Positions 12,820-41,557 of a stretch of DNA of 64,000 bases are shown here, piece by piece. The DNA is taken from the NCBI GenBank assembly GCA_021815205.1, contig JAKAHD010000001.1, forward strand, positions 25,247 to 89,246, in the 5' to 3' direction. This DNA is from a bacterium. Lineage in GTDB: Bacteria; Patescibacteriota; Minisyncoccia; UBA6257; GWB1-50-10. The position numbers and the translations under genes were made by a program. The notes beneath the pieces are model-generated. The model was not told the origin of the DNA and did no database searches. It saw nothing but the letters and a program-made list of their open reading frames with translations. Position 1 is the stretch's first letter. Every line of letters begins with the position of its first letter.

Positions 12820-13254
12820 ATGGAACAGCATATCGAATCAAACAACGAGAAGATATATGAGATCACCGCGCTTCTTCGGGATGAGGATTTTTCTCCGGTG
12901 AGACAGCTTCTTGAAACATATGCCGCCCGTATCATGGAAGAGCGTCCGCTTGAGAAAACACACTTGAGTTACCCGATTCTTAAGGAACGTTTCGTCTTTC
13001 AGGGAGTGTGTTATTTCACCATGCCTGAAGCGTCGGTTGCGAGACTCCAGAATGATCTGCGTTTTGCAAGCGGTGTGTTGCGCTCCATGGTGCGCAGCGT
13101 GAAACGCGTGGGAGCAAAGAGCGGAGCGAATAGGGGTTTGGGGTTACACCGCGAAGCGGGGAGATTAAGTGGGTCCCGCGAAGGGAGAAGATCGGAGGGT
13201 CAGGTGCTCACCAACGAGGCGCTTGAGAAAAAGATAGAGGAGATTTTGCAGTAA
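12820..13254 (+). CDS. rpsF: 30S ribosomal protein bS6 (C-terminal low-complexity extension)
   Basis: YEI...L(S)YPI...G.YYF...P....LR....VLRSMV pattern of bS6. Heads the conserved rpsF-ssb-rpsR arrangement. Confidence 0.8.
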   Translation: MEQHIESNNEKIYEITALLRDEDFSPVRQLLETYAARIMEERPLEKTHLSYPILKERFVFQGVCYFTMPEASVARLQNDLRFASGVLRSMVRSVKRVGAKSGANRGLGLHREAGRLSGSREGRRSEGQVLTNEALEKKIEEILQ

Positions 13255-13297
13255 ATAAGGTATACTTATTGTAGGGCTACGAGATGCCAATTATATG

Positions 13298-13474
13298 CTA
13301 CGAAATACGAATTGTGTACGAATATACGAACACATGAGATCCTTCATCCGCCTGCGGCGCCTGCTCGCCGAATCCGCCACAGTGGAGCAGGCGGAGATCC
13401 ATGATGACGGTACGATTCGTATATTCGTAGTCAATTCGTAATTCGTAGAGAGAACGTAATCTATAGAGCATCAC
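13298..13474. mobile_element. MITE-like repeat family C copy 1 (177 bp; 33-bp imperfect TIR CTACGAAATACGAATTGTGTACGAATATACGAA / TTCGTATATTCGTAGTCAATTCGTAATTCGTAG)
   Basis: Identical 177-bp copy at 13934-14110. It ends directly at the ATG of ssb. The reverse-strand 'ORFs' 13298..13891 and 13934..14170 are translations of this repeat. Confidence 0.85.
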
Positions 13475-13933
13475 ATGAATCTCAACAAGGTCTTCATTCT
13501 TGGCAATCTTACCCGCGATCCCGAACTGCGGCAGACATCCGGAGGACAGTCGGTATCCACCTTCGGGGTGGCGACGAACAGTTTTTTTCAGGATAAGTCC
13601 GGGCAACGCCAGCAGAAGGTTGAATTTCATAACATAGTCGTGTGGGGAAGGCAGGCGGAGGTCGCGAGCCAGTTCTTGAAGAAGGGCGGGCTTGTACTCG
13701 TCGAGGGAAGGCTTCAGACCCGAACGTGGCAGGACAAGCAGGGAATGAACCACAAGACGACGGAGATCGTCTCCGAACGGATCCAGTTCGGTCCGCGAAT
13801 GGGAGGCGGAGATGCGGCCCGGAGTTCCTTTGGGGTCGGGAAAGCGACGGAGGACTCTGAAGCGCCGAAAGAAGAACTTCCCGATGTCCATATTGACGAA
13901 GAAGACATCAAGCCGGAAGATATTCCGTTTTAG
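13475..13933 (+). CDS. ssb: Single-stranded DNA-binding protein
   Basis: OB-fold SSB signature and acidic C-terminal tail ending DIPF. Confidence 0.92.
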   Translation: MNLNKVFILGNLTRDPELRQTSGGQSVSTFGVATNSFFQDKSGQRQQKVEFHNIVVWGRQAEVASQFLKKGGLVLVEGRLQTRTWQDKQGMNHKTTEIVSERIQFGPRMGGGDAARSSFGVGKATEDSEAPKEELPDVHIDEEDIKPEDIPF

Positions 13934-14110
13934 CTACGAAATACGAATTGTGTACGAATATACGAACACATGAGATCCTTCATCCGCCTGCGGCGCCTGC
14001 TCGCCGAATCCGCCACAGTGGAGCAGGCGGAGATCCATGATGACGGTACGATTCGTATATTCGTAGTCAATTCGTAATTCGTAGAGAGAACGTAATCTAT
14101 AGAGCATCAC
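13934..14110. mobile_element. MITE-like repeat family C copy 2 (177 bp, identical to copy 1)
   Basis: Exact direct repeat of 13298-13474. It ends directly at the ATG of rpsR. Confidence 0.85.
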
Positions 14111-14320
14111 ATGAAGACGAAAAAACAGTGCTTTTTTTGCTCGCAGAACGCGAAGGAGATTGATTTCCACGATGTGGAGATGCTCTCGCGTTTTATCTCA
14201 AGCCAGGGAAAGATCATCGACCCGCGCCATACGGGTGTGTGCGCCACGCATCAGCGTAATCTCGCCCGCGCCATCAAGCAGGCGAGAGTGATGGGGCTCG
14301 TTCCTTTCGTGACCCGATAA
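14111..14320 (+). CDS. rpsR: 30S ribosomal protein bS18
   Basis: 69 aa with the conserved bS18 Cys-containing N-terminus and DPRHTGVCATHQRNLARAIKQAR. Confidence 0.9.
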   Translation: MKTKKQCFFCSQNAKEIDFHDVEMLSRFISSQGKIIDPRHTGVCATHQRNLARAIKQARVMGLVPFVTR

Positions 14321-14338
14321 CGGTGTAGTTTCTTTTCT

Positions 14339-14914
14339 ATGGGGATTGATGTTCTTGCCTTCCAGTTTGTCCACGGTCTTACGGGGTGGGCGGGTATGCT
14401 CGACACTGCCGGCGTTTTTTTTGCGCAGTACCTTCCGTATTTGCTCGGTATTGCGATCATTATTTTTATATTCAAGAGCCGATCGCCCAAGACGCGTTTC
14501 AAGACGTTTCTTTTTATTACGCTCACGGCGCTCCTCTCGCGCGGGATACTTACCGAGGCAATAGGATTTTTCTTTCTGCGTCCCAGGCCTTTTGATGCGT
14601 TCGGGTTCACGCCGCTTATTTCCGTATCGGGAGCATCGTTCCCCTCGGGTCATGCGGCATTTTTCTTCGCCGTAAGCTTTGCGATATTCGCGATCGACCG
14701 CACGTGGGGATGGTGGTTTTTTGTCTTGTCTGTTTTGAACGGCCTCGCAAGAGTTTTCGTGGGTGTGCATTACCCCCTCGATGTCGCGGGCGGGTTCCTT
14801 GTTGCGCTCGTATCCTATTTCGTGATTGCGCCGATCTTCAAGACGCCCCACGCGCCGCTACATGAAGCATCACATGAAACACACGCACTTCAGGAAGAAG
14901 GCGAGACGATATAA
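14339..14914 (+). CDS. PAP2-family membrane phosphatase (undecaprenyl-diphosphatase / PgpB-like)
   Basis: PAP2 motifs PSGH and GVHYPLDVAGG within a polytopic membrane protein. Confidence 0.75.
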   Translation: MGIDVLAFQFVHGLTGWAGMLDTAGVFFAQYLPYLLGIAIIIFIFKSRSPKTRFKTFLFITLTALLSRGILTEAIGFFFLRPRPFDAFGFTPLISVSGASFPSGHAAFFFAVSFAIFAIDRTWGWWFFVLSVLNGLARVFVGVHYPLDVAGGFLVALVSYFVIAPIFKTPHAPLHEASHETHALQEEGETI

Positions 14915-15461
14915 AGGGTACACTGCCGCAGTCCTTGCTGAACTTTGGCGGGGCGGGGTAGGAATTTTTCCAACCGACACGCTGTATGGAATTGTCGCGC
15001 CCGCATTTTCAGAAGCCGCAGTGGAACGAATATATCGGTTACGGAAGAGAAGTAAAAAAAAGCCCTCGATCATTCTCATTGCGGCCCCCGAAGACATCGC
15101 TCTCTTCGGCATAAAGGCGGGGAGGAAGGAAAGACTCTTTTTGGAAAAAGCGTGGCCCGGAAAGGTGAGCGTAATCCTTTCGTGTCCCGGAAGCGAGTTC
15201 TCATACCTTCATCGCGGCGCATACACACTTGCCTTTCGAGTGCCGAAGAATGCCGCACTCCGGAGGTTCCTGAAGTTCTCGGGGCCGCTTATCGCGCCGA
15301 GCGCGAACCCCGAAGGGAAACCTCCCGCGCAGACGATCCGCGAGGCGAGGCGCTATTTTGGCGACAGAGTTGATTTTTACATTCATAGAGGAAGATTAGG
15401 GGGAAAGCCCTCCCGTCTTGTGGAGCTCAAAAATGGCGAGGTAAAAATATTGAGAAAATAG
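14862..15461 (+). CDS. tsaC: L-threonylcarbamoyladenylate synthase (TsaC/YrdC/Sua5 family)
   Basis: YrdC-domain signature (GVGIFPTDTLYGIV). The start is uncertain: ATG 14862 or 14874, overlapping the PAP2 gene end. Confidence 0.8.
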   Translation: MKHHMKHTHFRKKARRYKGYTAAVLAELWRGGVGIFPTDTLYGIVAPAFSEAAVERIYRLRKRSKKKPSIILIAAPEDIALFGIKAGRKERLFLEKAWPGKVSVILSCPGSEFSYLHRGAYTLAFRVPKNAALRRFLKFSGPLIAPSANPEGKPPAQTIREARRYFGDRVDFYIHRGRLGGKPSRLVELKNGEVKILRK

Positions 15462-15475
15462 TATTCAATGTCATT

Positions 15476-15575
15476 GGGAGCCTGGCCCGCGCAGGCAGAC
15501 GGAACGAAGCAATCCTCAGAGAAGACAGCACCTGAGATTGCTTCGGACTTGCGTCCTCGCAATGACGTTCTCTTG
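15476..15575 (+). promoter_or_regulatory. Long imperfect hairpin in the secE-nusG leader (GTCATTGGGAGC...CGAAGCAATC / GATTGCTTCGG...CCTCGCAATGAC)
   Basis: Two nested inverted-repeat arm pairs about 40 nt apart, upstream of secE. A related CGTCATTGCGAG motif recurs near 59500. Confidence 0.4.
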
Positions 15576-15650
15576 TGTCCTTTTTTCTTCTGTGCTAGAG
15601 TGGAGTAGAGCCACAAGACGGCCGTCGTTTTCTTTTAGGAATCAGTAATT

Positions 15651-15833
15651 ATGGGGCACATCAAGAGTTTTCTTAACGAATCGCGGCAGGAATTGAAGCG
15701 GGTTAATTGGCCCAGAAAGGAAGAGACCACGCGTTATACGATCTTTGTGATCGTGCTTTCGGTGGGGCTTGCCGCATTTTTAGGCATCCTTGATTACATG
15801 TTTTTGCAGATACTCCAACACGTGATACTCTAG
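15651..15833 (+). CDS. secE: Preprotein translocase subunit SecE
   Basis: 60 aa with a single C-terminal TM helix and the ELKKVNWP motif, immediately upstream of nusG. Confidence 0.8.
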   Translation: MGHIKSFLNESRQELKRVNWPRKEETTRYTIFVIVLSVGLAAFLGILDYMFLQILQHVIL

Positions 15834-15849
15834 AAAAGAGAGGAACATT

Positions 15850-16410
15850 ATGCTCTTACCTACACAGAAAAAAGAAAAGAACCAGGGGCGTGCATGGTAC
15901 GCAATCCATACTTACTCCGGGTATGAAGACGCGGTCGCGCGGTATTTGAAGCAACGTATCGAGTCCTTGAGTGTTACCGATAAGATATTCAACGTTATTG
16001 TTCCGAAGGAGACAAAAATAAAAATCAAGAATGGAAAACGCCAGAAGACGGAAGAGAAAATTTACCCCGGATACGTACTCGTGGATATGGTGCTCGATAA
16101 CGACTCATGGTACGTCGTACGCAATACGCCAAGGGTGACGGGATTCGTGGGTGTCGACACCGCGACGCCGACGCCGCTCTCAAAAGAAGAAATTGACGAT
16201 CTTATGCGGCGTATCGGGGAGGCCGAGCCGAAATTTAAAGTTGACTTCAAGGAGGGGGAAGTGGTAAAAATTACGGACGGTCCCTTCAAGGAGCAGGAAG
16301 GCAAAGTGTCCGAGGTTGATGACGAACATGGGAAGATTAAGGTGCTCGTCCCGATATTTGGAAGGGATACGTTAGTCGAGCTGGATTCATTGCAGGTAAA
16401 GCGATTATAA
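15850..16410 (+). CDS. nusG: Transcription termination/antitermination factor NusG
   Basis: NGN domain (AWYAIHTYSGYE) plus KOW domain (GEVVKITDGPFKEQEGKV). Confidence 0.92.
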   Translation: MLLPTQKKEKNQGRAWYAIHTYSGYEDAVARYLKQRIESLSVTDKIFNVIVPKETKIKIKNGKRQKTEEKIYPGYVLVDMVLDNDSWYVVRNTPRVTGFVGVDTATPTPLSKEEIDDLMRRIGEAEPKFKVDFKEGEVVKITDGPFKEQEGKVSEVDDEHGKIKVLVPIFGRDTLVELDSLQVKRL

Positions 16411-16415
16411 TAATG

Positions 16416-16536
16416 CTACGAAATACGAATTGTGTACGAATATACGAATACGACCGTTATTCTGACCTGCCGCAGGCAGAGAAGAATCTATCGGATTAGT
16501 ATATTCGTACTCAATTCGTAATTCGTAGAGAAATAC
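16416..16536. mobile_element. MITE-like repeat family C copy 3 (121 bp, same TIRs, different core)
   Basis: CTACGAAATACGAATTGTGTACGAATATACGAA...TATATTCGTACTCAATTCGTAATTCGTAGAG ending at the ATG of rplK. Confidence 0.8.
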
Positions 16537-16959
16537 ATGGCGAAACCAATTAAGGCAATGTTAAAACTGCAGATCAAGGCGGGAGAAGCGAATCCCGCGC
16601 CGCCGATCGGCCCCGCGTTGGGGCAGCACGGCGTGAATATCCAGCAGTTCTGTCAGCAATTTAATGAAGCAACGAAGGAGATGCGCGGCGACGTGATTCC
16701 CGCGGAGATCACCATCTATGAAGACAGGACGTTTGAATTTAAACTCAAGACTCCGCCCGCCTCGGCGCTCATCAAAAAAGCTGCGGGTATAGAAAAAGGA
16801 GCCGCGGAGTCCGGAAAGAAGACGGTGGGAAAGATCTCAAGGGCTGATTTGAGAAGTATCGCGGAGAAGAAGATGGTGGACCTGAACGCGACGGACATTG
16901 AAGCGGCGGAAAGAATCATTTCCGGCACGGCGAAAAACATGGGTATTGAGATTGAATAG
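16537..16959 (+). CDS. rplK: 50S ribosomal protein uL11
   Basis: Classic uL11 N-terminus ([26 protein letters not shown]). No rplA follows. Confidence 0.95.
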
Positions 16960-17145
16960 TCTCAATACCCATGTTTTAACCCTTACATCAAGGGCGATAG
17001 ATTTCTGATTGTATTCGAGAAAACCATCTCGCAGGCCGAGCGGGCATGGTTTCCGCCGAAGGCGGAAGAGCGAGGCCGAGAGTGAGCGCGCATTCCTCGC
17101 TGGGGAATGCAATAGCGTGTTTTCGAGAATATAATTCAAGAAATC

Positions 17146-17586
17146 TTACTCGGCCGCCACCTCTTTCTTTGCTTCTATCTCCCGATACACCGTTCCCAAG
17201 ACCCCGTTTATGAACTTTGGAGAATTCTGCCCTCCGTAATTTTTTGCGATTTCAATCGCTTCGTTGATGGCTACCTTGGGGGGCACCTCGTTCCTGTCCG
17301 CATAGAGGAGTTCCGAGAGGCCGATACGAAGCACGTTCCTGTCGATGATCGCGACCTGTTCCAAGGGCCATTCCGGCGCGACTCTCCTGATGATCGCGTC
17401 TATTTCGGGGAGGTGCTCGATAACCCCCTTCGCGATGCGCCACACGAAGTCCGGCTCGTCGATACCGGGCCCGTAATCTTTAGTGTTACGTTCGATGATA
17501 GCGGGAAGATCGCTCTCGTGGTGGTAAAAATCCCACTCGTAGAGCGACTGCAACACGATAGTTCTTGCAAGGTGCCGCGTGGCCAT
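17146..17586 (-). CDS. nusB: Transcription antitermination factor NusB
   Basis: 146-aa NusB-family all-helical protein ([12 protein letters not shown]...GVLGTVYRE). Confidence 0.88.
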
Positions 17587-17589
17587 GTT

Positions 17590-17700
17590 CTTAAAATTCT
17601 AAATCCTAATTCCTAAATTCTAAACAATGACAAAAATCCAAAATCCTAATGTCCAAAACACGCGTTTTGAAAATTCGTATATTTGGTCATTTGAATTTGT
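17590..17700. repeat. AT-rich satellite-like tract of AAATCCTAA-type short repeats plus AAACGCGTGTTT palindrome (family F)
   Basis: Low-complexity AATCCTAA/ATTCTAAA iterations. Related tracts occur at 17940-18048, 18186-18240 and 29434-29600, all sharing GAAATTCGTAT and TTAGGATTTG. Confidence 0.6.
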
Positions 17701-17886
17701 TTAGGATTTAGGATTTGAAACATTAGAATTTCGCGTATATGTGCCGCACTGCGGACATAGGCGATGGGGAAGCGTCGGGCCCTTACAGTTGGGGCAGGGA
17801 ATCACCCGCACCTTCTTCAACGCCAACTGGGAACGCCGTCTTCCGACCTTCGATTTTGAATGATGTTTGGTAGGTACGCCACCCAT
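17701..17886 (-). CDS. rpmF: 50S ribosomal protein bL32
   Basis: GVPTKHHSKSKVGRRRSQ...CPNCKGPTLPHRLCPQCGTY matches bL32. The likely start is the internal Met; the track ORF extends to 17949. Confidence 0.8.
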   Translation of the reverse strand: MGGVPTKHHSKSKVGRRRSQLALKKVRVIPCPNCKGPTLPHRLCPQCGTYTRNSNVSNPKS

Positions 17887-18052
17887 GGACTTAATTTGAA
17901 TCTTATAGTAACGCTTGCACGGATGGAAGTCAAATGAAGCAAATTCCAAATCCTAATTTCCTCCGCCTGAGGCGGATCCTCCTTCGGAGGAAAATCCTAA
18001 ATAATGGCCAAGATACGAAATTCCAATAACCAAAACGCGTCGTGTTTTCTAT

Positions 18053-18177
18053 CCCGTGAGAAGCAAGAAACCCCGTGGCGTGCCACGGGGATGAACCCCC
18101 CACTCATTTCGTGGGGGGGAATGCCTCGTCCCGTGGCGAACGCGGGGTTTCCTGCCCCCATGTGAGCTTCTCACGGG
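18053..18177. mobile_element. MITE-like repeat family D copy 1 (~125 bp, 13-bp perfect TIR TCCCGTGAGAAGC / GCTTCTCACGGGA, hairpin-rich GC core)
   Basis: Near-identical copies occur at 23137-23263 and 27380-27511. The internal hairpins are CCCCGTGGCGTGCCACGGGG and CCCCACTCATTTCGTGGGGG. Confidence 0.85.
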
Positions 18178-18230
18178 ATTTATTTTGAATTTTTGTCATT
18201 CGAATTTGTTTAGGATTTAGAGTTTTGAAT

Positions 18231-19175
18231 TTAGGATTTTGTCTTAATAAATTGCTCGACTTTCTGAATCGCCTCGGTATTGGTGTTAACCCAAATGATG
18301 CGGAAATCCCTTTTGAACCACGTCATCTGCCGCTTGGCGTAGCGGCATATTTCCTTCGCGAGTGTTTCTTCGAACGCTTCCCGTGTGATCTTCCCTTGGA
18401 GGAATTGGGCGCCGTACCGGTACTCGAGTCCGAGATCGTCCATACGTTTCCATGAAACACCTTCCTCATGGAGCCGGGTGATCTCCTCGATCATTCCGTG
18501 CCGGAGGCGTTTGTGAAGCCGTATCCTGATACGTCGTTCGAGTTCCTGTGGGTCTTTTCTGATTCCGAGGAAGAGTATGTCCGCGTCGAGCGGACAGAGG
18601 GAAAGTTCAGGCACTTTCCCGAGCGCCTCGGCGATCTCGAGCGCTCGGATAAGGCGACGCGGATTCTTAGGATCGATCGTCTTGGCTCGCGCAGGATCCT
18701 TTTTTTTCAAATACGAGAACAGTTCTTGAGCGGATACCTTCCCGAGTCGTGCGCGCAGCGCCCGATCTGGTCTTACTTCCGGGAAGACGATGCCATCCAC
18801 CGCGGCGCGGATATAAAGTCCCGTCCCGCCGCACACAACAGGCACCTTATTCTCTTTCCATATGCGCGCGATTTCTTTTCGCGCGAGTTTCTGATAGTGT
18901 GCGACGGTAAATATCCTCTTTGGATCCGCGATATCAAGAAGATGGTGCGGTACCCCCTTCATTTCGCGTTTTGTAATTTTCCCCGTGCCGATATTCATGC
19001 CCTTGTATACCTGCCTCGAATCGGCGGAGATAATCTCGGCGCCCTCTGCACCGAACCGCTTTTGCGCTCGCGCGGAGTTAAAAAGACGCGCCACCTCGAC
19101 CGCGAGTTCGGACTTCCCGCTCGCGGTGGGACCCGCGATTATGATGAGTGGGCGTACCGTATCCTTCCTCTCCAT
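18231..19175 (-). CDS. miaA: tRNA dimethylallyltransferase
   Basis: P-loop (IIAGPTASGKSELA) and MiaA conserved blocks. Confidence 0.93.
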   Translation of the reverse strand: MERKDTVRPLIIIAGPTASGKSELAVEVARLFNSARAQKRFGAEGAEIISADSRQVYKGMNIGTGKITKREMKGVPHHLLDIADPKRIFTVAHYQKLARKEIARIWKENKVPVVCGGTGLYIRAAVDGIVFPEVRPDRALRARLGKVSAQELFSYLKKKDPARAKTIDPKNPRRLIRALEIAEALGKVPELSLCPLDADILFLGIRKDPQELERRIRIRLHKRLRHGMIEEITRLHEEGVSWKRMDDLGLEYRYGAQFLQGKITREAFEETLAKEICRYAKRQMTWFKRDFRIIWVNTNTEAIQKVEQFIKTKS

Positions 19176-19215
19176 AGTGATAGCTATAGTATACGGCGAT
19201 CTTTCCTCACGCGCA

Positions 19216-19257
19216 TCTCCCGAGAGTGTTATGACGCGTCATAACACCCTCGGGAGA
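19216..19257. repeat. Palindrome family A copy 3 (extended 42-bp palindrome)
   Basis: TCTCCCGAGAGTGTTATGACGCGTCATAACACCCTCGGGAGA lies between thrS and miaA. Confidence 0.9.
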
Positions 19258-19362
19258 CGCCCGACAATGGACAACGGTGGAGATAGAACTTTCATGGAGG
19301 AAAGAAAATGAAAAGGAGCTTGGCATAAAAACATGCTAAGCTCTTATATTTTCTATAGCGCC

Positions 19363-19392
19363 GAGGGTGCTATGCTATAGCATAGCACCCTC
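19363..19392. repeat. Palindrome family B copy 2 (GAGGGTGCTATGCTATAGCATAGCACCCTC)
   Basis: Perfect 30-bp palindrome, 110 bp from family A copy 3. Confidence 0.9.
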
Positions 19393-19445
19393 AAGACGTC
19401 GAGAAATACTTCTTCTCCGGGGGCGGACCGGGATGACGAGAGCGC

Positions 19446-21233
19446 TTATTTCCGTTCTGTAATCTCTTTTGTAATTTTCTCGATGAATTTCTCAAGCGGA
19501 ATCGTTTCGGTTTCTTTCACGTGCCGCGTGCGGATAGTCACGGTTTTCGCGGTTTCTTCTTTCTCTCCTACGACGATCGTGTAGGGGATTTTCCGGAGTT
19601 CCGTTTCGCGGATCCGTTTTCCGAGCGTTTCGTTCGCACCCCCAAGTTCGGTGCGGATACCGTGTTGCGTAAGCCCCTCATTTACTTTCTCGGCATAGGC
19701 ACTGAACTTGTCACTCACAGGAAGGATGGTTACTTGCGTCGGTGCGAGCCAGACAGGGAAATCGCCCGCGTAGTGCTCGATCAAGACGGAGAGAAAACGC
19801 TCGATGGAGCCCATGATCGCCGCATGGATCATCACGATCCGTTCCGGCTCCCCTTCTTCGTTCGTGCAGGTGAGATCGAAGCGCTCCGGCATGTTCATGT
19901 CGAGCTGGATCGTCGCGACCTGCCACTCGCGCCTCAAGGAATCCTTCCCTATAAAATCTATTTTCGGACCGTAAAATGCCGCTTCGCCTTTTGCCTCGGT
20001 TGCGGTCGCGTGCCGCTCCTTTACGAGCGCGCGGAGTTCGTTTTCTGCCGCTTTCCAGGTTTTGGGATTTCCAAGATACTTCTCCATATGTTTCGGATCA
20101 GAGAGCGATAAACGTACCCCGAGATCGAATCCGAATGCGCCGTAGAATGTTTCGATGATGCGCCATATTTTTGCCATCTCTTCCCTAATTTGGGATTTCC
20201 TACAGAAGACGTGAGCATCATCCTGGGTGATGGATCGGACGCGCGAGAGGCCGGCAAGCTCTCCCGATTGTTCATCGCGGTATACTTTTGTGGTATTTGC
20301 ATAACGCTGAGGAAGTTCGCGGTAGCTCCATGATCGGCGGGCGTAGATCTGCGTGTGATGAGGGCAGTTCATCGGTTTTATCGCAAAAAAATGTCCTTCG
20401 CGCGTCCTCACCTTGAAGAGATCATCCTTGAATTTCTCCCAGTGTCCGCTTTTCTCGTACAGTTCTTTTTTAGTGAGGTGCGGTATGTCGACCTGGCTAT
20501 ACCCCGCCGCCCTGCGGAGACCCCACACGTAATCGTCAAGAAGGTTCCGGAGCAGTGTTCCCTTCGGAGTCCATAGGGGGAGCCCCGCCCCCACAAGTTC
20601 GGAGAAGGTGAAGAGATCGAGTTCGGGTCCCAATTTTTTATGATCGCGCCGCTTCGCCTCTTCCTGAAACGCGAGATAGTCGTCGAGTTCTTCTTTTGTT
20701 TTAAATGCAAGCCCGTAGATGCGCGTGAGCATCGGATTCTTCTCGTCGCCGCGCCAGTAGGCGCCCGCGATATGGGAGAGCTTGAACGCGTCGGGATTGA
20801 TCTCCGAGGTGTTTCTCACATGCCCTCCCTTGCATAAGTCTACGAATGCCGCTGATTGCCGCTGATTTTTAGCTGATGACCGCTGACCCTCTTTTCCGGT
20901 AATGTAGATAGTAAGCGGTTTTTTCTCTTTCTGAAATTCTTTAATGAGATCAAGTTTGAAGGGCTGGTCTCCAAAAAGTTTTTTCGCGGCAAGGGGAGTG
21001 ATTTTTTTACCTGAAAAGGGGAGCTTTTTGCCAACGAGTCCCCGCATGGTTTTCTCGAACTCCCGCAAGTCCTCGTCCGTGATGGGGCGGGGGAGCTTGA
21101 AGTCGTAGTAGAACCCGTGTTCGATTACGGGCCCGATCCCGAGCTTCGCCTTCGGAAATTTCTTCAGTACCGCCGCGGCCAAGAGGTGCGCCAAGGAGTG
21201 ACGGATGCCGTCCACGGAATCGTGTGTTTTCAT
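19446..21233 (-). CDS. thrS: Threonine--tRNA ligase (no N-terminal TGS domain)
   Basis: Class II aaRS core plus the ThrRS editing/second additional domain (HSLAHLLAAAV). 595 aa. Confidence 0.95.
   Translation of the reverse strand: MKTHDSVDGIRHSLAHLLAAAVLKKFPKAKLGIGPVIEHGFYYDFKLPRPITDEDLREFEKTMRGLVGKKLPFSGKKITPLAAKKLFGDQPFKLDLIKEFQKEKKPLTIYITGKEGQRSSAKNQRQSAAFVDLCKGGHVRNTSEINPDAFKLSHIAGAYWRGDEKNPMLTRIYGLAFKTKEELDDYLAFQEEAKRRDHKKLGPELDLFTFSELVGAGLPLWTPKGTLLRNLLDDYVWGLRRAAGYSQVDIPHLTKKELYEKSGHWEKFKDDLFKVRTREGHFFAIKPMNCPHHTQIYARRSWSYRELPQRYANTTKVYRDEQSGELAGLSRVRSITQDDAHVFCRKSQIREEMAKIWRIIETFYGAFGFDLGVRLSLSDPKHMEKYLGNPKTWKAAENELRALVKERHATATEAKGEAAFYGPKIDFIGKDSLRREWQVATIQLDMNMPERFDLTCTNEEGEPERIVMIHAAIMGSIERFLSVLIEHYAGDFPVWLAPTQVTILPVSDKFSAYAEKVNEGLTQHGIRTELGGANETLGKRIRETELRKIPYTIVVGEKEETAKTVTIRTRHVKETETIPLEKFIEKITKEITERK
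20849..20888. repeat. Tandem CGCTGAT motif array (CCGCTGATTGCCGCTGATTTTTAGCTGATGACCGCTGAC)
   Basis: Four iterations of (C)GCTGA(T/C). The same hexamer arrays recur at 36466-36490, 55419-55440, 56063-56097, 59470-59490 and 61485-61568. Confidence 0.6.
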
Positions 21234-21250
21234 TACTATAAATTATGCCT

Positions 21251-22843
21251 CTAATTCTTGTTTTTTGGAAGTGCGTCAAGGATTTTTTGCGCCGAGGCGG
21301 GATCGCGGATCGAGACGTAGTAGTTATAGAGTTTCTGGTATGGGAAAATGAAAGTTGGATCAAGCGCGATCGAGCGTTGCCATTCAGCGATCGCATCCTT
21401 CATCTTGCCTTCCGTTTCATATACGTTTCCGAGATCATAATGCGGCACGGCGTTTGCGGGATCGAGCGTGATCGTGCGTTCGTAGGCGTTCTTCGCGTAG
21501 GCGAGGTTCCCCGCATCGGCGTAGGCGATGCCGAGATTGTTCCAGATGCGTACGCTTTGCGGCGCGTACCGGAGCGTCTGCGTGTAGAAGGTAATTGGAT
21601 CGCGCCAGTCCGTGTTTCTTTTTATCGTTTGTATCCCGAAAAAAATGATTCCTGCGCCCCCCACCGAGATGAGTGCATATTGGAGCGTTCGGAGATTTCG
21701 TGGAATAAGCGATACGAGCGCCGCGAGGAAGAGGAAGAACCCCACGATCGGTGCGTACATATAATGTTCGTAGATGAGGCCCGCGACGGGAACCGCGATG
21801 CCGGAAGCGGGGAAGATCGCGACAAAGAACCACGCGGCGCCGAAGGCAATGCGCTTATCTCTTTTCCAAAAGAGCGCTGAGACGGCGATGAGAAGCGCCG
21901 CGATGACGAACCCGAGAATTACCTGCGGATTGAAGAACGCAGTCGCGACAGGAAACGAGAGCGAGCGTTCCATGTGAAGCCCCACGGGAAAGAGCATAAG
22001 CCCCGCGTAGACGGGGAGCGTCGAGAGGAAGGTGAAGAATCTCGCCGTGATGTGATCGGTGTAGTAGGTGTGAGTGTTGTAGATGTTGAATGTGTTTTGA
22101 AAATCAAGAAGCGTGCCGCGCAGGATAAGAAACCCGATACCGAGAATCGCGAACGGCAAAAGGCGCATCACAATTTCCCGCACGGACTTTTTCCATTTTT
22201 CCTTCAATTCAAGCGCATACCAGATATCCACAAGGAGCAGGAATCCGGGGAGTATGATGGAACGTTCCTTCGTCATGAGCGCAAGAGGATACATAAAGAA
22301 TGCCGCGAGGTACCAGTACGAAGCGGCACCGCTGTCGCTTTTCTTCTGGTGTATCCGGATGTAAAAGAGCATCGCGAGGAGTGTGAAGAAGAACGAAAGC
22401 GGATCGCCGCGCCCCGAGACGTATGTGATCGCCTCGGTTTGAAGCGGGGAGACGAGAAAGAAAAGCGCGACCGCGAAAGAGACGAGTTTCTTTTTGAAAA
22501 GCGCAAAGAGCACGAAGAAGACGAGGATCGCATTCCCGATATGGAGGAGCGTGTTCGTGAGATGGTACCCGCCGACCCAGTTACCCCAGAGATGCCACTC
22601 GATCGAATAGGTGATGAGGAGAACGGGGCGCCAGTAGTTGCTCTCGAGCCCCGAGCCCGCGATCAGGTTTTTCGTGAAGAAGTCGCCGATCGAGAAATTA
22701 TGGACATAGGCGTTATTCACGATGCCGTCGAAGTCGTCCCAGAACATCTGGTTCCCAAACGAGTTCGCGTAGATCGAAAACCCAATGATAATGAGAGCGA
22801 GGACCGCCAACAAGGTCGTGTGACCGAGAATCCATTTCTTCAT
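21251..22843 (-). CDS. Polytopic membrane protein with C-terminal TPR repeats (GT-C / TMTC-PMT-like putative glycosyltransferase)
   Basis: About 11 predicted TM segments and a C-terminal TPR module (NLGIAYADAGNLAYAKNAYERTITLDP...). The overlapping plus-strand Glu/Arg-rich ORFs are spurious. Confidence 0.6.
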   Translation of the reverse strand: MKKWILGHTTLLAVLALIIIGFSIYANSFGNQMFWDDFDGIVNNAYVHNFSIGDFFTKNLIAGSGLESNYWRPVLLITYSIEWHLWGNWVGGYHLTNTLLHIGNAILVFFVLFALFKKKLVSFAVALFFLVSPLQTEAITYVSGRGDPLSFFFTLLAMLFYIRIHQKKSDSGAASYWYLAAFFMYPLALMTKERSIILPGFLLLVDIWYALELKEKWKKSVREIVMRLLPFAILGIGFLILRGTLLDFQNTFNIYNTHTYYTDHITARFFTFLSTLPVYAGLMLFPVGLHMERSLSFPVATAFFNPQVILGFVIAALLIAVSALFWKRDKRIAFGAAWFFVAIFPASGIAVPVAGLIYEHYMYAPIVGFFLFLAALVSLIPRNLRTLQYALISVGGAGIIFFGIQTIKRNTDWRDPITFYTQTLRYAPQSVRIWNNLGIAYADAGNLAYAKNAYERTITLDPANAVPHYDLGNVYETEGKMKDAIAEWQRSIALDPTFIFPYQKLYNYYVSIRDPASAQKILDALPKNKN

Positions 22844-22878
22844 AGAGATAATGATAACAGATTTAGGAGTCTAGACTT

Positions 22879-22959
22879 CTGCGCCGCACACCTTGCTGCT
22901 CGGGCGCTCCGGGGCGCTAGCCCAAGTCCTACCCTCGCATCAAAGTATGCGGCGCAGGA
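22879..22959. mobile_element. Repeat family E copy 2 (CTGCTCGGGCGCTCCGGGGCGCTAGCCCAAGTCCTACCCTCGC, flanked by inverted repeats CTGCGCCGCACA / TATGCGGCGCAG)
   Basis: The core is shared with 34256-34283 and, reverse-complemented, with 3744-3768. Confidence 0.7.
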
Positions 22960-23136
22960 GTCCATTGGAGGTGATTATTGGCTAAGCTACACGAGACGAT
23001 CTTTTGGATGATATATACCAGATCGCAATCCTTTCCCAATGTAACCTTATTAGGTAAAAACAACTTTTCCTTTTCGAAGAAGCTTCTTGGAGTGAGGATA
23101 TAGCTTTATGAGCGACAATGAAGGAACAGGAATTTA

Positions 23137-23263
23137 TCCCGTGAGAAGCAGAAAACCCCGGGCGTGCCACGGGGATGAACCCCACACTCATTTAGTGTGG
23201 GGGTGAATGCCTTGTCCCGTGGCGAACGCGGGGTTTACTACTCCGTGTGAGCTTCTCACGGGA
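23137..23263. mobile_element. MITE-like repeat family D copy 2
   Basis: Same 13-bp TIRs and core as 18053-18177, with a few substitutions. Confidence 0.85.
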
Positions 23264-23400
23264 TTTATCACTGTCCGAATCCCGAAGTCTGCCGTAGGCA
23301 GACGGAGGTTGAGTTTGAGAAATTCCATTGTGAATGAGGAGGAGCGAATAAAAAGCTATCCGAGCGGAAAGCTGGCTGATGAGGAAAAGAAAAGTTGTTT

Positions 23401-26400
23401 TCACAGCGCCTCCACCCCCTCGCAGATATACTTTGTGTCCCCGTTTTTCCACGAGAGGAAGCCGTCCACGATGACCACCCTGTTCTCCTCCCACACTTCC
23501 GGTTTCTTCGCGAGGAGCTCCGAAAACACAAGGAGCTCGATTGAATTATTTTCGTGGTCTTCGAGCGTTACGAAGAGCATCGGCTGCCCTTTTTTTGTTA
23601 CGATCTTCTTCATGACGCTCACGACGCCCGCCATCCGGAACTTCAAAGATTTTTCACCCTGCTTCGGTACGGAGAGCGCGAATGCGATGGTCTTTGCCTT
23701 GCCGTTCAGTTTCGGCAGATGCTCGCTCATCGGATGGTCGGTGAGGTAGAGTCCTAAAAGCTCTTTTTCCCACCCAAGCATTGTGGCGGTATCGGTTTTT
23801 TCGACGGGACGGAGACGCAACGCCCCGAACGTCGAGACGTTTCCGAAGAGTGAGTTCTGGTTGCTTCCGGAGATTTTTTTTGCGGCCTGGTTGAACTTGA
23901 TGAGCTCCTCGATGTTTGCAAGAAGCGTGCCGCGTTCTACACCAAACGAATCCAACGCGCCGGCTTTTGCGAGACTTTCCAGGGACTTCTTGTTCATATC
24001 CCTGTGATAAAGACGCGAGAGGAAGTTTTGGAGACTGGTATATGCTCCGCCGCGCGCCCGCTCTTCGATAATGGCGTTCACGATGTTCGCGCCGAGATTT
24101 TTGATCGCGAGGAGTCCGAACCGTATTCCAGCTTGCCCCGAATCGGATTGAGGGGGTTGCCCCGCGTGCCCGCCGAAGTTTTGCGAATACTGGGAGCGTA
24201 TCGAAGAGTCTACGGTGAAATCCTGGAAGCTCGAGTTCACGTCCGGAGGCAGTACCTCGATTCGGTGATGCCGCGCCTCGCTCACGAGAAAACTGATACG
24301 CTCCACGTCGGTGCCCGAGACGTTCAGGAGACTTGCCATAAACTCGACGGGATAGTGCGCCTTAAGGTACGCCGTCTCGTAGCTTATCATGGCGTAGCAC
24401 GCGGCATGCGATCGATTGAAGCCGTACCGCGCGAAGGGAGGAAAGAGCTCCCAAATCTTCACGGCGATGCGCTTCTCGATGCCGTTTCTCGTCATGCCCT
24501 CGATGAGTTTTTTCTCCTGTTCGTCAAGGAGACTCTTGATTTTCTTTCCGATTGCCTTGCGGAGCGTGTCCGCCTCGGCGAGCGTGAAACCCGCGAGGTC
24601 GCGCGCGATGCGCATCATCTGTTCCTGATAGATTCCCACGCCGTAGGTCCCTTCGAGGATGGGCTTGAGTTTCGGATGAATGTAGTTTACGGTTTCTCTT
24701 CCGAACTTGCGGTTGATGTACTGCGGAATCAGTTCCATAGGTCCCGGGCGGTACAGCGATACCATTACAATAATGTCCTCAAGGTTGGTCGGCTTCAGCT
24801 CTTTCAGATAGCGGCGCATACCCTGCGACTCGAACTGGAAGATGCCGGTCGTGTCGCCTCTCTGGAAGATTTCGAATGTTGCCGCATCGTCAAGGGGAAT
24901 TGCGTCGATGTCGATCGAGACGCCGTGATATTCCTTCACGAGGCGGAGCGTTTTTTCGATAATGGTGAGGTTCTTGAGTCCCAAGAGGTCCATCTTCAAG
25001 AGCCCAATATCCTCGACACTGTGCCCCTCGAACTGCGTGAGGATCGTCTCTTCTCCTTGCGGCGCGTGCTGGAGCGGTATGAAGTTCGTGAGCGGTTCGG
25101 GGGAAATCACAACGCCGCATGCGTGCACCGAGGCGTGGCGAGCCGTACCCTCGAGTTTCAGTGCCGCGTCGAGGATCTTCTTCGCGTCCGCGTTATCGGT
25201 GTACAGCTTCTTAAGTTCCGGAATTGAGACGATTTCATCCTTCAGAGGAATGTTGAGACCCGTGATGAGCTTCGCGATCTGGTCGCACAAGGCGTAGGGG
25301 TAGCTCATCGCGCGTCCCGCGTCGCGAATTGCCGCGCGCGCCATCATCGTCCCGAACGTGATAATCTGCGCGACGTGGTCCGCGCCGTAGCGCTCGCGGA
25401 CGTAGGCCAAGACCTCGTCGCGGCGCGTGTCCGTGAAGTCCACGTCGATATCGGGCGCCTGGATCCTGTCGGGGTTCAGAAATCGTTCGAAGAGAAGCTC
25501 GTACTTCAGGGGGTCGATGTTCGTGATCCCGAGGATATAAGAAACGATGCTTCCCGCCGCGCTCCCGCGGCCGGGCCCCACGACAATGCCGTGATCCCTC
25601 GCCCACGTAATGTAGTCCTGCACGATAAGGAAGTAGTCGGCGAAGCCGGTTTTCTTAATCACGCCCATTTCCATCTGAAGGCGTTCCCGTACCTCATCCG
25701 TCGTCTTGGGGTATCGCTTACCGATTCGCTCCTCAATGAGATTGCCGAGGTATTCGAATGAATCTTTTCCTTCGGGGAGCGGGAAACGGGGAAGAAACGT
25801 CTTTCCGAGTCCGAGCTGCCAGTTGCACTTCTCCGCGATTTTCCATGTGTGCTCGATCGCCTCGGGAATATGCGCGAAATGTTTTTCCATCTGCTCCGGC
25901 GATTGAAGTGAGAGGTCGAAGCGTTTCAAACTCAGGCGATCCTCGTCGTCGAGTTTGGTGTTCGTCTGCACCGCGAGAAGTATCTCATGCGCGGTCTTGT
26001 CGTCGGGATTCACGTAATGGATATCCTGCGTCGCGACGAGCGGAATACCGAGTTTTTTTCCAAGTGTCATGAGCGGCGCGTGGAGTTCCGGTGCGTGCGG
26101 CTGTACTTCGAGATAATAATCTTCGCCGAAGAGGTTTTGATACCATCGCGCGGTTTCCTCCGCTTCCTGCATTTTTTTTGCCGCGACGAGCCGCCCGATT
26201 TCCCCGGAGAAACATCCCGAGAGACACACAAGCCCCTCGTGGTGTTTTTTGAGAAGCTCCTTGTCAATGCGCGGCTTGTAGTAGAAGCCGTCGAGGTAAG
26301 AGATGGTGACGAGCTTTATGAGATTCTTCCATCCCGTCTCGTTTTTTGCGAGGAGGATTTGATGATAACGCATCTCGTCGATTTTCGGTCGTTTATTGAG

Positions 26401-27361: not shown

Positions 27362-27379
27362 TCCGTGTCTTCGTGTCTA

Positions 27380-27511
27380 TCCCGTGAGAAGCAAGAAACC
27401 CCGTGGCGTGCCACAGAGATGAACCCCCACACTCATTTCGTGTGGGGGGGGTGAATGCCTCGTCCCGCGGCGAACGCGGGGTTTCCTACCCCCATGTGAG
27501 CTTCTCACGGG
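27380..27511. mobile_element. MITE-like repeat family D copy 3
   Basis: Same TIRs and core as copies 1 and 2. Followed by a 44-bp imperfect palindrome ATTACTAACTTGTGTGACGATCGTCACATAAGTTAGTAAT (27521-27566). Confidence 0.85.
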
Positions 27512-27585
27512 ATTTATTTTACATTACTAACTTGTGTGACGATCGTCACATAAGTTAGTAATGTAGTAATAGAGAAAACGAGTAT

Positions 27586-28556: not shown

Positions 28557-28629
28557 GCCACCTTAGCTCAGCTGGTAGAGCAATGCTTTCGTAAAGCATG
28601 GGTCCCGAGTTCGAGTCTCGGAGGTGGCT
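28557..28629 (+). tRNA. tRNA-Thr (anticodon CGU)
   Basis: Cloverleaf with acceptor stem GCCACCU/AGGUGGC, anticodon stem-loop AUGCU-UUCGUAA-AGCAU and T-arm GGGTC-CCGAGTTCGAGT-CTCGG. CCA is not encoded. Confidence 0.85.
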
Positions 28630-28645
28630 CAGAACTTCATATTCG

Positions 28646-28791
28646 GTAAACCCCAACGTGGCGATCATCTCCGTTCTTGCGGGCGCAGGAGGACTTGTCC
28701 TTCGAAGCCTTATTCTTAATCCAAGAAAACTAATATGTTATCGGTAAACCCCAACGTGGCGATCATCTCCGTTCTTGCGGGCGCAGGAGGA
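28646..28791 (+). repeat. 49-bp direct duplication (GGTAAACCCCAACGTGGCGATCATCTCCGTTCTTGCGGGCGCAGGAGGA) at 28646-28694 and 28742-28790
   Basis: The second copy encodes residues VNPNVAIISVLAGAGG of the truncated RF2. The first copy is out of frame, in the tRNA-Thr/prfB spacer. Confidence 0.9.
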
Positions 28792-29433
28792 GACGATGCG
28801 AAGGACTGGGCGAATAGGCTCCTCCGGATGTACTCGCGCTATGCGGATTTGAGGCATTGGAAGCTCCAGGCGGTAAACGATACGACGATAGAGCTTCGGG
28901 GCGAAGGGGCCTATGAGTGTTTAAAGGATGAGTCCGGCGTACATCGCCTGGTGCGTATCTCGCCCTTCGACGCGAAGAAGCTGCGGCACACTTCGTTCGC
29001 CTTGGTCGAAGTACTCCCCGAATTACCCGCGAATGATGCGGCGCACATCCAGATTCCTGAAAAGGATTTGAAGGTGGAGTTCTCCCGTGCGGGAGGGCCC
29101 GGCGGACAGAATGTGAACAAGGTAGAAACCGCGGTGCGGGTGACGCACCTGCCGACGGGGCTCGTGACATCATCGCGCGCCGAGCGGTCGCAGGCCTCGA
29201 ATCGCGAGAAAGCCCTGAATCTCCTGAAGGCAAAACTCGTGAAGCTCATGGAGGAGAAGCATGAGAAAGAAATCTCGAACCTGCGAACCCGCGTCGCTCC
29301 GGAGTGGGGGCATGAGATTCGTTCCTATGTACTCCATCCCTATAAGCAGATAAAGGATCACAGAACGGGACAGAAGATAAGCAGGGTGGAGGAAGTATTA
29401 GAAGGAAATCTAGATTTGTTAAATGCCAAATAA
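28735..29433 (+). CDS. prfB: Peptide chain release factor 2 lacking N-terminal domain 1 (domains 2-4 only); possibly truncated or pseudogenised
   Basis: The SPF codon-recognition motif (RISPFD), the GGQ motif (GGPGGQNVNKVETAVRVTHLPTGLV) and the AGAGGDDAKDWANRLLRMY block are all present. The product is only 232 aa, about 110-130 residues short of a normal RF2. No frameshift site or N-terminal coding sequence lies upstream. Confidence 0.75.
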   Translation: MLSVNPNVAIISVLAGAGGDDAKDWANRLLRMYSRYADLRHWKLQAVNDTTIELRGEGAYECLKDESGVHRLVRISPFDAKKLRHTSFALVEVLPELPANDAAHIQIPEKDLKVEFSRAGGPGGQNVNKVETAVRVTHLPTGLVTSSRAERSQASNREKALNLLKAKLVKLMEEKHEKEISNLRTRVAPEWGHEIRSYVLHPYKQIKDHRTGQKISRVEEVLEGNLDLLNAK

Positions 29434-30394: not shown

Positions 30395-30652
30395 CTACGA
30401 AATACGAATTGTATACGAATATACGAATACGGACTCATAGCCCATAATTTGCAACGCAATGGGCAATTTCGTATATTCGTAATGAAGATACCGCACCGCA
30501 CGCGGTGCGGTATCGGAATTCATCCGAAGCCAACCCTCCTTCGTCCGCCTCGAGCGGACTACGGAAGGGTTCTCCTTCGCCCTCCATCCTCATCGCACGC
30601 GACGGAGGTATTCGGGCGAAGGAGAATAAATTCGTAATTCGTAGAGAAATTC
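30395..30652. mobile_element. MITE-like repeat family C copy 4 (258 bp; same TIRs, carrying a nested 12-bp-stem palindrome ATACCGCACCGCACGCGGTGCGGTAT and GC-rich hairpins)
   Basis: Inserted in the ftsE-ftsX spacer. The right TIR ends at the ATG of ftsX. Confidence 0.8.
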
Positions 30653-32832: not shown

Positions 32833-33052
32833 GGGAGTCGGTTCTGTCCTGCCTTCGAAAACACGCGTCAACTCGCCCCAGCCGGCGAGTTGCGCTCGCT
32901 CTCGGCCTCGCTCTTCCGCCTTCGGCGGAAACCATGCCCGCTTGGCCTGCGAGACGGTTTTCGAAAGCAGGCAGAACCTTATGAGGGGTGGTGAACGATA
33001 TGACGCGCGATTATCTTTTTGTGTTGGTTGGACGGTGGAGTATTATAGGAAG

Positions 33053-41428: not shown

Positions 41429-41444
41429 AACGTCTCTCCTACGG

Positions 41445-41468
41445 GGTGTTATGACGCGTCATAACACC
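41445..41468. repeat. Palindrome family A copy 4
   Basis: Exact GGTGTTATGACGCGTCATAACACC about 90 nt upstream of the zwf-gnd fusion start. Confidence 0.9.
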
Positions 41469-41557
41469 CTCGATCCCATTCGCCTACCCCCATACCAGAG
41501 CGTACACTCGTGATGTGGGGGGTTTACTTCGGGAGGCGTTCGGTGGATACTAGAGGA

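Follow-up and report, generated by a model that had tools for sequence, protein, structure and literature searches.

The question raised by this locus is how four hairpin-forming repeats came to fill the spacers between consecutive genes of essential operons in a 64,000-nucleotide (nt) stretch of a Patescibacteriota genome (GenBank assembly GCA_021815205.1, contig JAKAHD010000001.1, positions 25,247 to 89,246), the whole of which is referred to here as the window. Direct reading and a repeat scan of this 64-kb window located four foldback elements, at 13298-13474, 13934-14110, 16416-16536 and 30395-30652, the same positions at which a preliminary description had placed four copies of a repeat resembling miniature inverted-repeat transposable elements (MITEs). 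From the comparisons given below, the four copies probably belong, as non-autonomous forms that lack the gene, to a family of selfish foldback cassettes bearing a gene for a GxxExxY nuclease.

Each element is laid out as a 33-nt arm, a variable self-pairing core, the inverted arm and then a short 3' tail. The left arm (CTACGAA-A-TACGAA-TTGTG-TACGAA-TA-TACGAA) is an array of four TACGAA hexamers with spacers of 1, 5 and 2 nt, and the right arm (TTCGTA-TA-TTCGTA-nnCAA-TTCGTA-A-TTCGTAG) is the inverse of this array. The 33-bp imperfect terminal inverted repeats described earlier agree with the arms of copies 1 and 2 (CTACGAAATACGAATTGTGTACGAATATACGAA / TTCGTATATTCGTAGTCAATTCGTAATTCGTAG), which are 33 nt long and 91% complementary. 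These two copies, one on each side of ssb, had also been reported as identical, and the identity was found to extend to 183 nt (13297-13479 = 13933-14115). The hairpins bounded by the arms alone span 13298-13448, 13934-14084, 16416-16528 and 30395-30644, with lengths of 113-250 nt; the end coordinates given earlier do reach the ATG of the next gene and include 3' tails of 26, 26, 8 and 8 nt (copies 1-4) which lie outside the arms. Within the window, TACGAANNTACGAA at no more than one mismatch gave nine matches where 0.26 were expected, AATTCGTAATTCGTAG at no more than three mismatches gave eight where 0.93 were expected, and a hidden Markov model (HMM) built from 74 arms picked exactly these eight arms in the 64 kb.

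The genes flanking the elements were identified using Pfam as rpsF, ssb, rpsR, nusG, rplK, ftsE (ABC ATPase) and ftsX. The elements occupy the stop-to-start spacers before ssb, rpsR, rplK and ftsX, all are co-oriented with their operons, and the distances from the upstream stop to the left arm are 43, 0, 5 and 4 nt for copies 1-4. Their parts, all on the plus strand, are as follows.

13298..13330, +, copy 1 left arm, four TACGAA units (arm HMM, E 4e-11)
13331..13415, +, copy 1 core, GC-rich and self-pairing, not related to that of copy 3 or copy 4
13416..13448, +, copy 1 right arm, four TTCGTA units with terminal GTAG (arm HMM, E 3e-12)
13449..13474, +, copy 1 tail, 26 nt (AGAGAACGTAATCTATAGAGCATCAC), reaching the ssb ATG (13475)
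13934..14110, +, copy 2, identical to copy 1, with arms at 13934-13966 and 14052-14084 and tail at 14085-14110
16416..16448, +, copy 3 left arm, 5 nt past the nusG stop (repeat scan, arm HMM)
16449..16495, +, copy 3 core, 47 nt, with its own small hairpin CTGCC GCA GGCAG (fold z-score -8.6)
16496..16528, +, copy 3 right arm, first unit TTAGTA (motif scan, arm HMM)
16529..16536, +, copy 3 tail, 8 nt (AGAAATAC), before the rplK ATG (16537)
30395..30427, +, copy 4 left arm, 4 nt past the ftsE stop (arm HMM, Pfam)
30428..30481, +, copy 4 inner core (30428-30467), then TTCGTATATTCGTA (30468-30481), which is the right arm's inner half
30482..30628, +, copy 4 insertion, 147 nt with three GC-rich hairpins, splitting the right arm (multibranch fold, z-score -9.85)
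30629..30652, +, copy 4 right arm, outer half (AATTCGTAATTCGTAG, 30629-30644), and 8-nt tail AGAAATTC, before the ftsX ATG (30653)

The elements are non-coding and, outside the identical pair, their cores are unrelated in sequence, which bears out the earlier picture of a non-coding multi-copy family with conserved inverted ends and variable cores. RNA folding predicted near-continuous stems, with z-scores of -7 to -10 across the elements (copy 1 as a whole, -75.6 kcal/mol and z-score -6.95), and copy 3 folded as DNA gave a z-score of -10. The 26-nt tail of copy 1 belongs to the duplicated unit and is missing at the empty sites of relatives, while copy 2 starts directly at the ssb stop (TAG, 13931-13933) and ends at the rpsR ATG (14111). 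A small hairpin in copy 4 is closed by the inner halves of its arms.

An NCBI contig was found to be identical to window positions 13403-23933, breaking inside copy 1, and the order repeat-ssb-repeat recurs in an ENA contig of 735 nt that was found in five samples. These independent assemblies bear out the structure, which is not an artifact of assembly. Hairpins of this kind break assemblies and prompt spurious small gene calls: two public contigs, L001 and L002, terminate within the repeat of 183 nt, the annotation of L001 has a 35-aa gene within copy 2 (568-675, equal to window 13970-14077), and a scan of open reading frames (ORFs) lists one of 48 aa in copy 1 (window 13295-13441), both of which are probably spurious. 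There is an ATG directly before the left arm in copies 1, 3 and 4, and in copies 1 and 4 the ORF that it opens ends at a TAA in the right arm. Translational coupling by such a mini-ORF was dropped as a main explanation, as it is lacking in copy 2 and is not general in the family.

The link to a nuclease comes from a metagenome locus, L082 (also L107 and L131), where the arms lie 390 nt apart around a 131-aa ORF that matches the GxxExxY protein family TIGR04256 (E 7e-31) and PF13366 PDDEXK_3 (E 6e-31). A protein search returned 302 homologs of this ORF, many of them labelled Patescibacteria, and the loci of four homologs with 63-81% identity were fetched.

rpsG-fusA junction, L155 and L156: cassette with TACGAA/TTCGTA arms
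T2SSE-T2SSF junction, L158: cassette with TACGAA/TTCGTA arms
PBP-MraY junction, L161: cassette with TACTAA/ATTAGTA arms

In these four cassettes, inverted arms of 36-40 nt with 81-88% complementarity lie 380-405 nt apart around ORFs of 128-134 aa. At rpsG-fusA and T2SSE a single nucleotide separates the upstream stop from the left arm, the distance from the right arm to the next ATG is 0-5 nt, and in three of the four TACGAA-armed cassettes (L082, L155, L156) the last base of the left arm overlaps the ATG of the GxxExxY gene. The arms of L155 equal those of the window at 29 of 33 and 31 of 33 positions, and in L158, from Patescibacteria, a TACGAA hairpin with no ORF lies upstream of the cassette, at a distance of 1.1 kb. 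These loci show that the arms in the window are the same module as the arms of the GxxExxY cassettes, that the ORF-less and cassette forms occur together in one genome (L158), and that hairpins and cassettes have in common a geometry in which the stop-start junction is filled. No GxxExxY/PDDEXK_3 gene lies between the arms in the window, and the four copies were for this reason classed as ORF-less derivatives and not as full cassettes.

Flanking inverted arms were seen for 9 of the 11 GxxExxY genes examined, with other phyla using other sequences, mostly short tandem units. These are GCTAAT/ATTAGC in the metagenome contig L141, CACAGAG/CTCTGTG in Bacteroides finegoldii (radA-cassette-FAD protein) and Bernardetia, CGCGAAG between fabD and fabG in Sphingomonas, and ACACGGATTCG in Treponema; in Gemmatirosa, a CGCGGAT foldback neighbors the GxxExxY gene. 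Across 70 homologs, neither the D75...E85-x-K87 triad nor the G..E..Y motif varies, and the AlphaFold model (predicted local distance difference test score 93) has a minimal PD-(D/E)XK fold. The nearest solved folds are Cas4 SSO0001, lambda exonuclease, the tRNA-splicing endonuclease and an Hjc-type resolvase, with template modeling scores of at most 0.54. PADLOC gave weak Cas4-like hits only, a sequence search of the PDB with the GxxExxY protein found nothing, and a search for cyanobacterial GxxExxY genes in plasmids found none.

To establish whether the elements are insertions, three of the four sites (rpsF-ssb, ssb-rpsR and nusG-rplK) were compared with syntenic loci of relatives labelled Patescibacteria whose NusG is 83-91% identical. 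Homologs of NusG also place the source organism itself in Patescibacteria/Paceibacterota. The order rpoB-rpoC-rpsF-ssb-rpsR-PAP2-sua5-secE-nusG-rplK-nusB is conserved between the window and these relatives, and the element is absent from the orthologous junctions, at which the preliminary description had proposed looking for empty sites.

rpsF-ssb: TACGAA element in the window; spacers of 18 nt in L143, 22 nt in L146 and 4 nt in L148; another hairpin in L149/L150
ssb-rpsR: TACGAA element in the window; spacers of 9 nt (TTTTAGCTACAAAACATGAAA) in L143 and ~10 nt in L146; another hairpin in L148-150 and L168
nusG-rplK: TACGAA element in the window; spacer of 4 nt (TTATAGAAACATGG) in L146; a different ~90-nt spacer in L143 and L166

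At nusG-rplK, L168 also has a decayed TACGAA-like foldback, and L148-150 have hairpins of a third family, CCAGGCAGTAG...CACTGCCTGG. For the hairpin ATCCCGTTAGAGGCA...TGCCTCTAACGGGAT (rpsF-ssb and ssb-rpsR junctions of L148/L149/L150; L168 1-30), the insertion point coincides exactly with the ATGAA start codons of ssb and rpsR; ATGAA flanks the hairpin on either side, and the mini-ORF from the first ATG stops at a TAA 7 nt before the real ATG. NusG is identical in L148 and L149, yet this hairpin is present before ssb in L149/L150 and absent in L148. Since the spacers of relatives are either empty at 4-22 nt or hold unrelated hairpins, the comparison indicates that the elements of the window are lineage-specific insertions into very short spacers, and that the three junctions have been colonized repeatedly by unrelated foldbacks. 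As different hairpin families occur at these junctions in different lineages, the balance leans slightly to a targeting of initiation regions, or insertion hot spots, rather than to mere survival in the only sites where insertion is tolerated.

The arms were then followed beyond this genome by exact-word scans, in which GTDB genomes were searched with an 18-mer of the left arm and metagenomes with a symmetric 17-mer (at least 120 loci), a procedure that biases the sample to well-conserved arms. The total of matches to the 18-mer was near chance and did not include the source species, yet about half were real TACGAA arrays, and many of the matched contigs carry the full four-unit arm with the same spacing, TTCGTAyATTCGTAyyAATTCGTAwTTCGTAG. 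Among the matches listed, approximately half of ~150 exact 17-mer matches have both inner TTCGTA units, which the search did not demand (chance ~4e-4 per match). The arm HMM matches 85 of the DNA stretches collected, with 134 hits (E<1e-4). Going by record titles (labels of metagenome-assembled genomes), the carriers include Parcubacteria, Doudnabacteria, Moranbacteria, Bacteroidota/Bacteroidia/Flavobacteriales and Bdellovibrionales. The repeat family noticed in this genome is real, and its ends are not private to one genome but recur under several phylum labels; the elements are more general than the reading of a single genome could show. A scan of viral contigs for the arm word gave two chance matches only, and a plasmid blastn with copy 3 (arms included) gave no match.

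The nearness to start codons noted in the window also holds across the family. Of 108 distinct arms, 57 have a co-directional start no more than 80 nt from their outer end (median ~8 nt, with 35 within 14 nt), and 57 have a stop codon read towards the arm no more than 80 nt from that end (median ~5 nt). The genes downstream include rplP, rplX, fusA, rplI, ychF, ribE, ispE, tilS, thrS and pilT-like genes. Arms are found in both orientations relative to transcription, some of them between convergent and others between divergent genes (L006), and certain arms that appear solo have diverged partner arms made of TACTAA, AACTAA or GCTAAT units. In the arm alignment the hexamers hold ~2 bits, a value that is partly circular because the outer units were set by the search word and the inner units were pre-selected near TTCGTA, while the spacers hold 0.4-1.5 bits and the flanks 0.2-0.3. 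No element-specific compensatory pairing was detected, complementarity being 0.80 within elements and 0.79 between them (p 0.17), and with no excess within elements it is the consensus sequence that the arms share. The alignment thus points to conservation of the hexamers, and not of pairing alone.

TTCGTA units were also observed in two other contexts (L042 2590-2700, L027, L031, L043, L052, L063, L109, L114, L135 and L142), namely a 35-nt tandem repeat of a GC hairpin plus CAATTCGTAATTCGTAG and a recurrent motif, GAAAGAAAGCTTTAACAATTCGTAATTCGTAGTTCGTAATTCGTAATTCGTTTAA, on many contigs, most of them from one metagenome.

In the reading that we favor, a full cassette would comprise a left arm of short tandem units (four of TACGAA), a gene of ~130 aa for a GxxExxY PD-(D/E)XK protein and an inverted right arm, placed exactly between the stop of one gene and the start of the next, and the copies in the window would have kept the arms and a short 3' tail, with an unrelated self-pairing core in place of the gene. 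The arms would act as recognition arrays of the cognate nuclease, which may mobilize or copy the ORF-less hairpins in trans. In the polycistronic mRNA, the arms would snap into a stem of ~33 bp, by which the insertion could be tolerated in essential operons; such a stem would juxtapose the upstream stop and the downstream start, and by analogy with the intervening sequences of 23S rRNA its length would suit RNase III. The tail (AGA...) would serve as a new short spacer before the ATG, and copies 1 and 2 may stem from a recent copying event that took the 26-nt tail along.

A number of points weigh against this reading. An HMM search of the 64-kb window and of syntenic 20-kb stretches from the relatives found no GxxExxY gene, the sample of GxxExxY loci is small at 11, and the solved folds nearest to the protein are only generic. 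To our knowledge, no biochemical activity has been described for GxxExxY proteins. Some arms appear solo, though several of these have diverged partners, no target-site duplication or excision footprint points to a mechanism, and the fate proposed for the RNA (RNase III cleavage, coupling) is pure inference.

Four other explanations were weighed, each of which fails at least one direct test. It is unlikely that the elements are classical MITEs, that is, deletion derivatives of an insertion sequence (IS) moved in trans by a DDE transposase (e.g., IS630/Tc1-like with a TA target), even though the 33-nt terminal inverted repeats, small size, several copies, variable cores and presence or absence at orthologous sites would all suit such an origin, and the ends can be read as C-TA-CGAA...TTCG-TA-G with a TA on both sides. 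The C/G outside this TA, often with TCT/AGA beyond it, is conserved at unrelated sites, which argues for its belonging to the element's own ends and not to a duplicated TA target. The target-site duplication that had been anticipated was not unambiguous at any of the copies or cassettes compared: ATG flanks both sides of copies 1, 3 and 4, copy 2 has TAG on its left, and the ORF-bearing cassettes show no duplication (TAA-T-[element]-ATG). Duplications read as ATG, TA or TCTAGA were each considered, and none fits every copy. When 1563 ORFs from ~140 loci were clustered all-against-all, the recurrent families tested were all housekeeping and no recurrent transposase-like family was found beside the arms. 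The sole coding partner with the same arms is the 130-aa PD-(D/E)XK protein, and arms of four hexamers are atypical of IS ends. What stands of the MITE label is the inverted repeats, the several copies and their status as insertions; the lack of a transposase and of a clear duplication, and the GxxExxY nuclease as partner, speak against the rest.

There is also little probability that the elements are cis-acting RNAs selected by the host, in which an intercistronic stem-loop would set mRNA processing, stability or coupling for ssb, rpsR, rplK and ftsX. All four copies run in the direction of their operons and stop 8-26 nt short of an ATG, their predicted folds are very stable, and such a role has been proposed for the hairpins of short tandemly repeated repetitive (STRR) elements in cyanobacteria (PMC2670836). 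The preliminary description had gone further in suggesting that the element supplies the whole 5' untranslated and ribosome-binding region or carries a promoter. Nearly the whole spacer is indeed filled, but a required promoter or ribosome-binding role is unlikely, given that relatives manage with spacers of 4-22 nt that lack the element. Consensus scans found no sigma-70-like promoter on the plus strand and no plus-strand promoter or terminator common to the copies, although this is a weak test. At the same junctions other lineages have unrelated hairpins, complementarity within elements did not exceed that between elements, and arms also lie between convergent and divergent genes. A known regulatory leader, which would have displaced the mobile-element reading, was looked for in Rfam: only two tRNAs pass the gathering score in the window, and nothing overlaps the elements at E up to 10 (13200-16600), so that a known leader, riboswitch or ribosomal-protein leader is excluded within that library. 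No rRNA was found in the window. Secondary co-option of the hairpins by the host may nevertheless occur.

Very doubtful is an origin like that of repetitive extragenic palindromic (REP) sequences and REPINs, singlets and inverted doublets which would be spread by a REP-associated tyrosine transposase (RAYT) of the IS200/IS605-type HUH class. REPs have a GTAG head, which the outer ends CTAC...GTAG recall, and the occurrence of arms as apparent singlets and inverted pairs, their strictly extragenic location and the lack of target duplication also fit. A single arm, however, is not palindromic, its TTCGTA units being all in one orientation, so that a REP hairpin is impossible, and GTAG stands at the outer end only. 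No HUH/RAYT-like family occurs among the recurrent ORFs neighboring the arms, carriers of the arm have several phylum labels, whereas a REP family is as a rule confined to one lineage, and several of the 'singlets' have diverged partner arms. Least credible of all, and hardly to be entertained, is a double-stranded DNA array for a host nucleoid or regulatory protein recognizing TACGAA hexamers, since, although the hexamers hold ~2 bits while spacers and flanks vary (not an independent measure, the arms being pre-selected) and the orientation of the arms to transcription goes both ways, no protein of this kind is known, close relatives differ in whether they have the element, unit spacing of 7-11 nt does not align the sites on one face of B-DNA, and association with a small nuclease gene explains the conservation more directly.

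The reading of the four copies as gene-less members of a nuclease-bearing cassette family can be taken a step further, to a proposal that we offer tentatively and consider rather less likely to hold than to fail. The GxxExxY cassettes and ORF-less hairpins could together represent an unrecognized class of mobile element present in several phyla, an 'intercistronic intervening sequence' with an array-recognizing nuclease, a stem cleavable by RNase III and a kinship to STRR hairpins and intervening sequences (IVS). A minimal PD-(D/E)XK nuclease would here recognize arrays of its own repeat unit and either copy the element or home its gene into ORF-less hairpins at stop-start junctions, the arms would render the insertion harmless by folding it out of the operon mRNA for RNase III, and STRR hairpins and the ORF-bearing IVS of 23S rRNA would follow the same principle.

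If true, even Patescibacteria genomes of ~1 Mb tolerate selfish insertions in the operons most essential to them (rpsF-ssb-rpsR, nusG-rplK, ftsEX), and the GxxExxY/PDDEXK_3 proteins, which are abundant and uncharacterized, would be tied to STRR hairpins and to ORF-bearing rRNA intervening sequences. If the link to the nuclease is wrong, the elements are merely another bacterial foldback repeat. Selfish hairpins of foldback, STRR-like or IVS-like type are already known, and it is possibly the link to a minimal nuclease family that is new. In the open literature (subscription journals being outside the scope), no paper was found that describes TACGAA strings or a link of GxxExxY to tandem-unit arms, and no report was found that links STRR hairpins to GxxExxY genes or to insertion polymorphism.

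A number of other repeats were observed in the window. There is a foldback with tandem GGTGATAC-type arms (GTGATGCGGTGGCGATACGGTGGTGATACGATTG / CAATCGTATCACCATAGTATCACCATTGTATTAC) at 62757-62829, between scpA (62038-62760) and scpB (62891-63508), whose left arm overlaps the scpA stop and which has the architecture of the TACGAA elements with a different unit. Inverted AATCCTA/TAGGATT arrays lie between nusB and miaA (17590-17731 and 17940-18240), and the second pair encloses a GC-rich repeat of ~155 nt (18036-18191) which recurs at 23135-23268 and 27364-27525. A GC-rich foldback of ~110 nt with ends TTCGAGAAAAC...GTTTTCGAGAA occurs at 17015-17128 (+) and 32866-32966 (-), with 89% identity over 87 nt.

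The perfect 28-nt palindrome GGGGTGTTATGACGCGTCATAACACCCC is present at 37-64, 624-651, 19222-19249 and 41442-41469. Its first two copies flank a 147-aa ORF (175-618) with weak helix-turn-helix matches (Trp repressor, Sleeping Beauty transposase HTH), which may be another small cassette. A second palindrome, GGTGCTATGCTATAGCATAGCACC, is found at 2635-2664, 19361-19390, 56108-56137 and 56313-56342, two of the copies being 205 nt apart beside a low-GC stretch (56-58 kb, GC 0.42). Finally, 51 nt are repeated exactly and in direct orientation at 28643-28693 and 28741-28791, at an interval of 98 nt, immediately past a tRNA gene (28557-28629) and where the RF-2-like gene begins (28735-29433); a duplication, the scar of an insertion or an error of assembly could account for this.

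When the elements are compared with known systems, several share single features only. Mycobacterial interspersed repetitive units (MIRUs) are sense-oriented within operons, where they separate the stop codon of one gene from the start codon of the next, and the mini-ORFs that they can carry could couple translation. The position between stop and start within operons is thus alike, whereas MIRUs are direct tandem repeats and not foldbacks, and the mini-ORF of copies 1 and 4 is not general across the TACGAA family. The Correia elements (NEMIS) of Neisseria are short non-coding MITEs, often co-transcribed, with stems cut by RNase III; they produce a TA duplication, occur in Neisseria only and may contain promoters. 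They resemble the elements of the window in being short and non-coding with terminal inverted repeats, and differ from them in that here there is no clear duplication, no promoter was found, the arms are made of hexamers and the partner is a nuclease. REPs, bacterial interspersed mosaic elements (BIMEs) and REPINs are alike in their extragenic location, in occurring singly or as inverted doublets, in their CTAC/GTAG termini and in the lack of target duplication, whereas here the arm is not a palindrome, no RAYT is among its recurrent neighbors and it is spread over several phylum labels.

A closer parallel in design is seen in the IVS of 23S rRNA (e.g., Coxiella burnetii, Leptospira). The IVS of Coxiella burnetii is 428 nt long, with a 28-bp terminal stem, an internal S23p ORF and cleavage by RNase III, and is regarded as selfish and horizontally acquired; IVS are sporadic in occurrence, and because RNase III cuts the stem the host RNA continues to function (PMC4990558). 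The general plan of ~430 nt, with a stem of ~28 bp and an optional loop ORF of 120-130 aa, is matched here by stems of 33 bp (36-40 nt in the cassettes). The IVS lie in helices 9, 25 or 45 of 23S rRNA and all of the copies in the window lie between protein genes; their ORF is S23p, of a four-helix-bundle family, and that of the cassettes is GxxExxY; and RNase III cleavage has been shown for the IVS, while for the elements of the window it is presumed from their stems.

The closest objects described are the STRR hairpins of cyanobacteria, in which tandem repeats of ~7 bp form hairpins between the genes of operons (e.g., hupS-hupL); their function is unknown, and transcript stability or coupling has been proposed (PMC2670836). 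STRR sequences belong to filamentous cyanobacteria, whereas arms of the type in the window are labelled Patescibacteria, Bacteroidota and Bdellovibrionales, and the units here are hexamers with spacers of 1-5 nt and periods of 7, 8 and 9-11 nt, not strict heptamer tandems. Both are inverted arrays which form hairpins between the genes of operons, here rpsF-ssb-rpsR, nusG-rplK and ftsE-ftsX.

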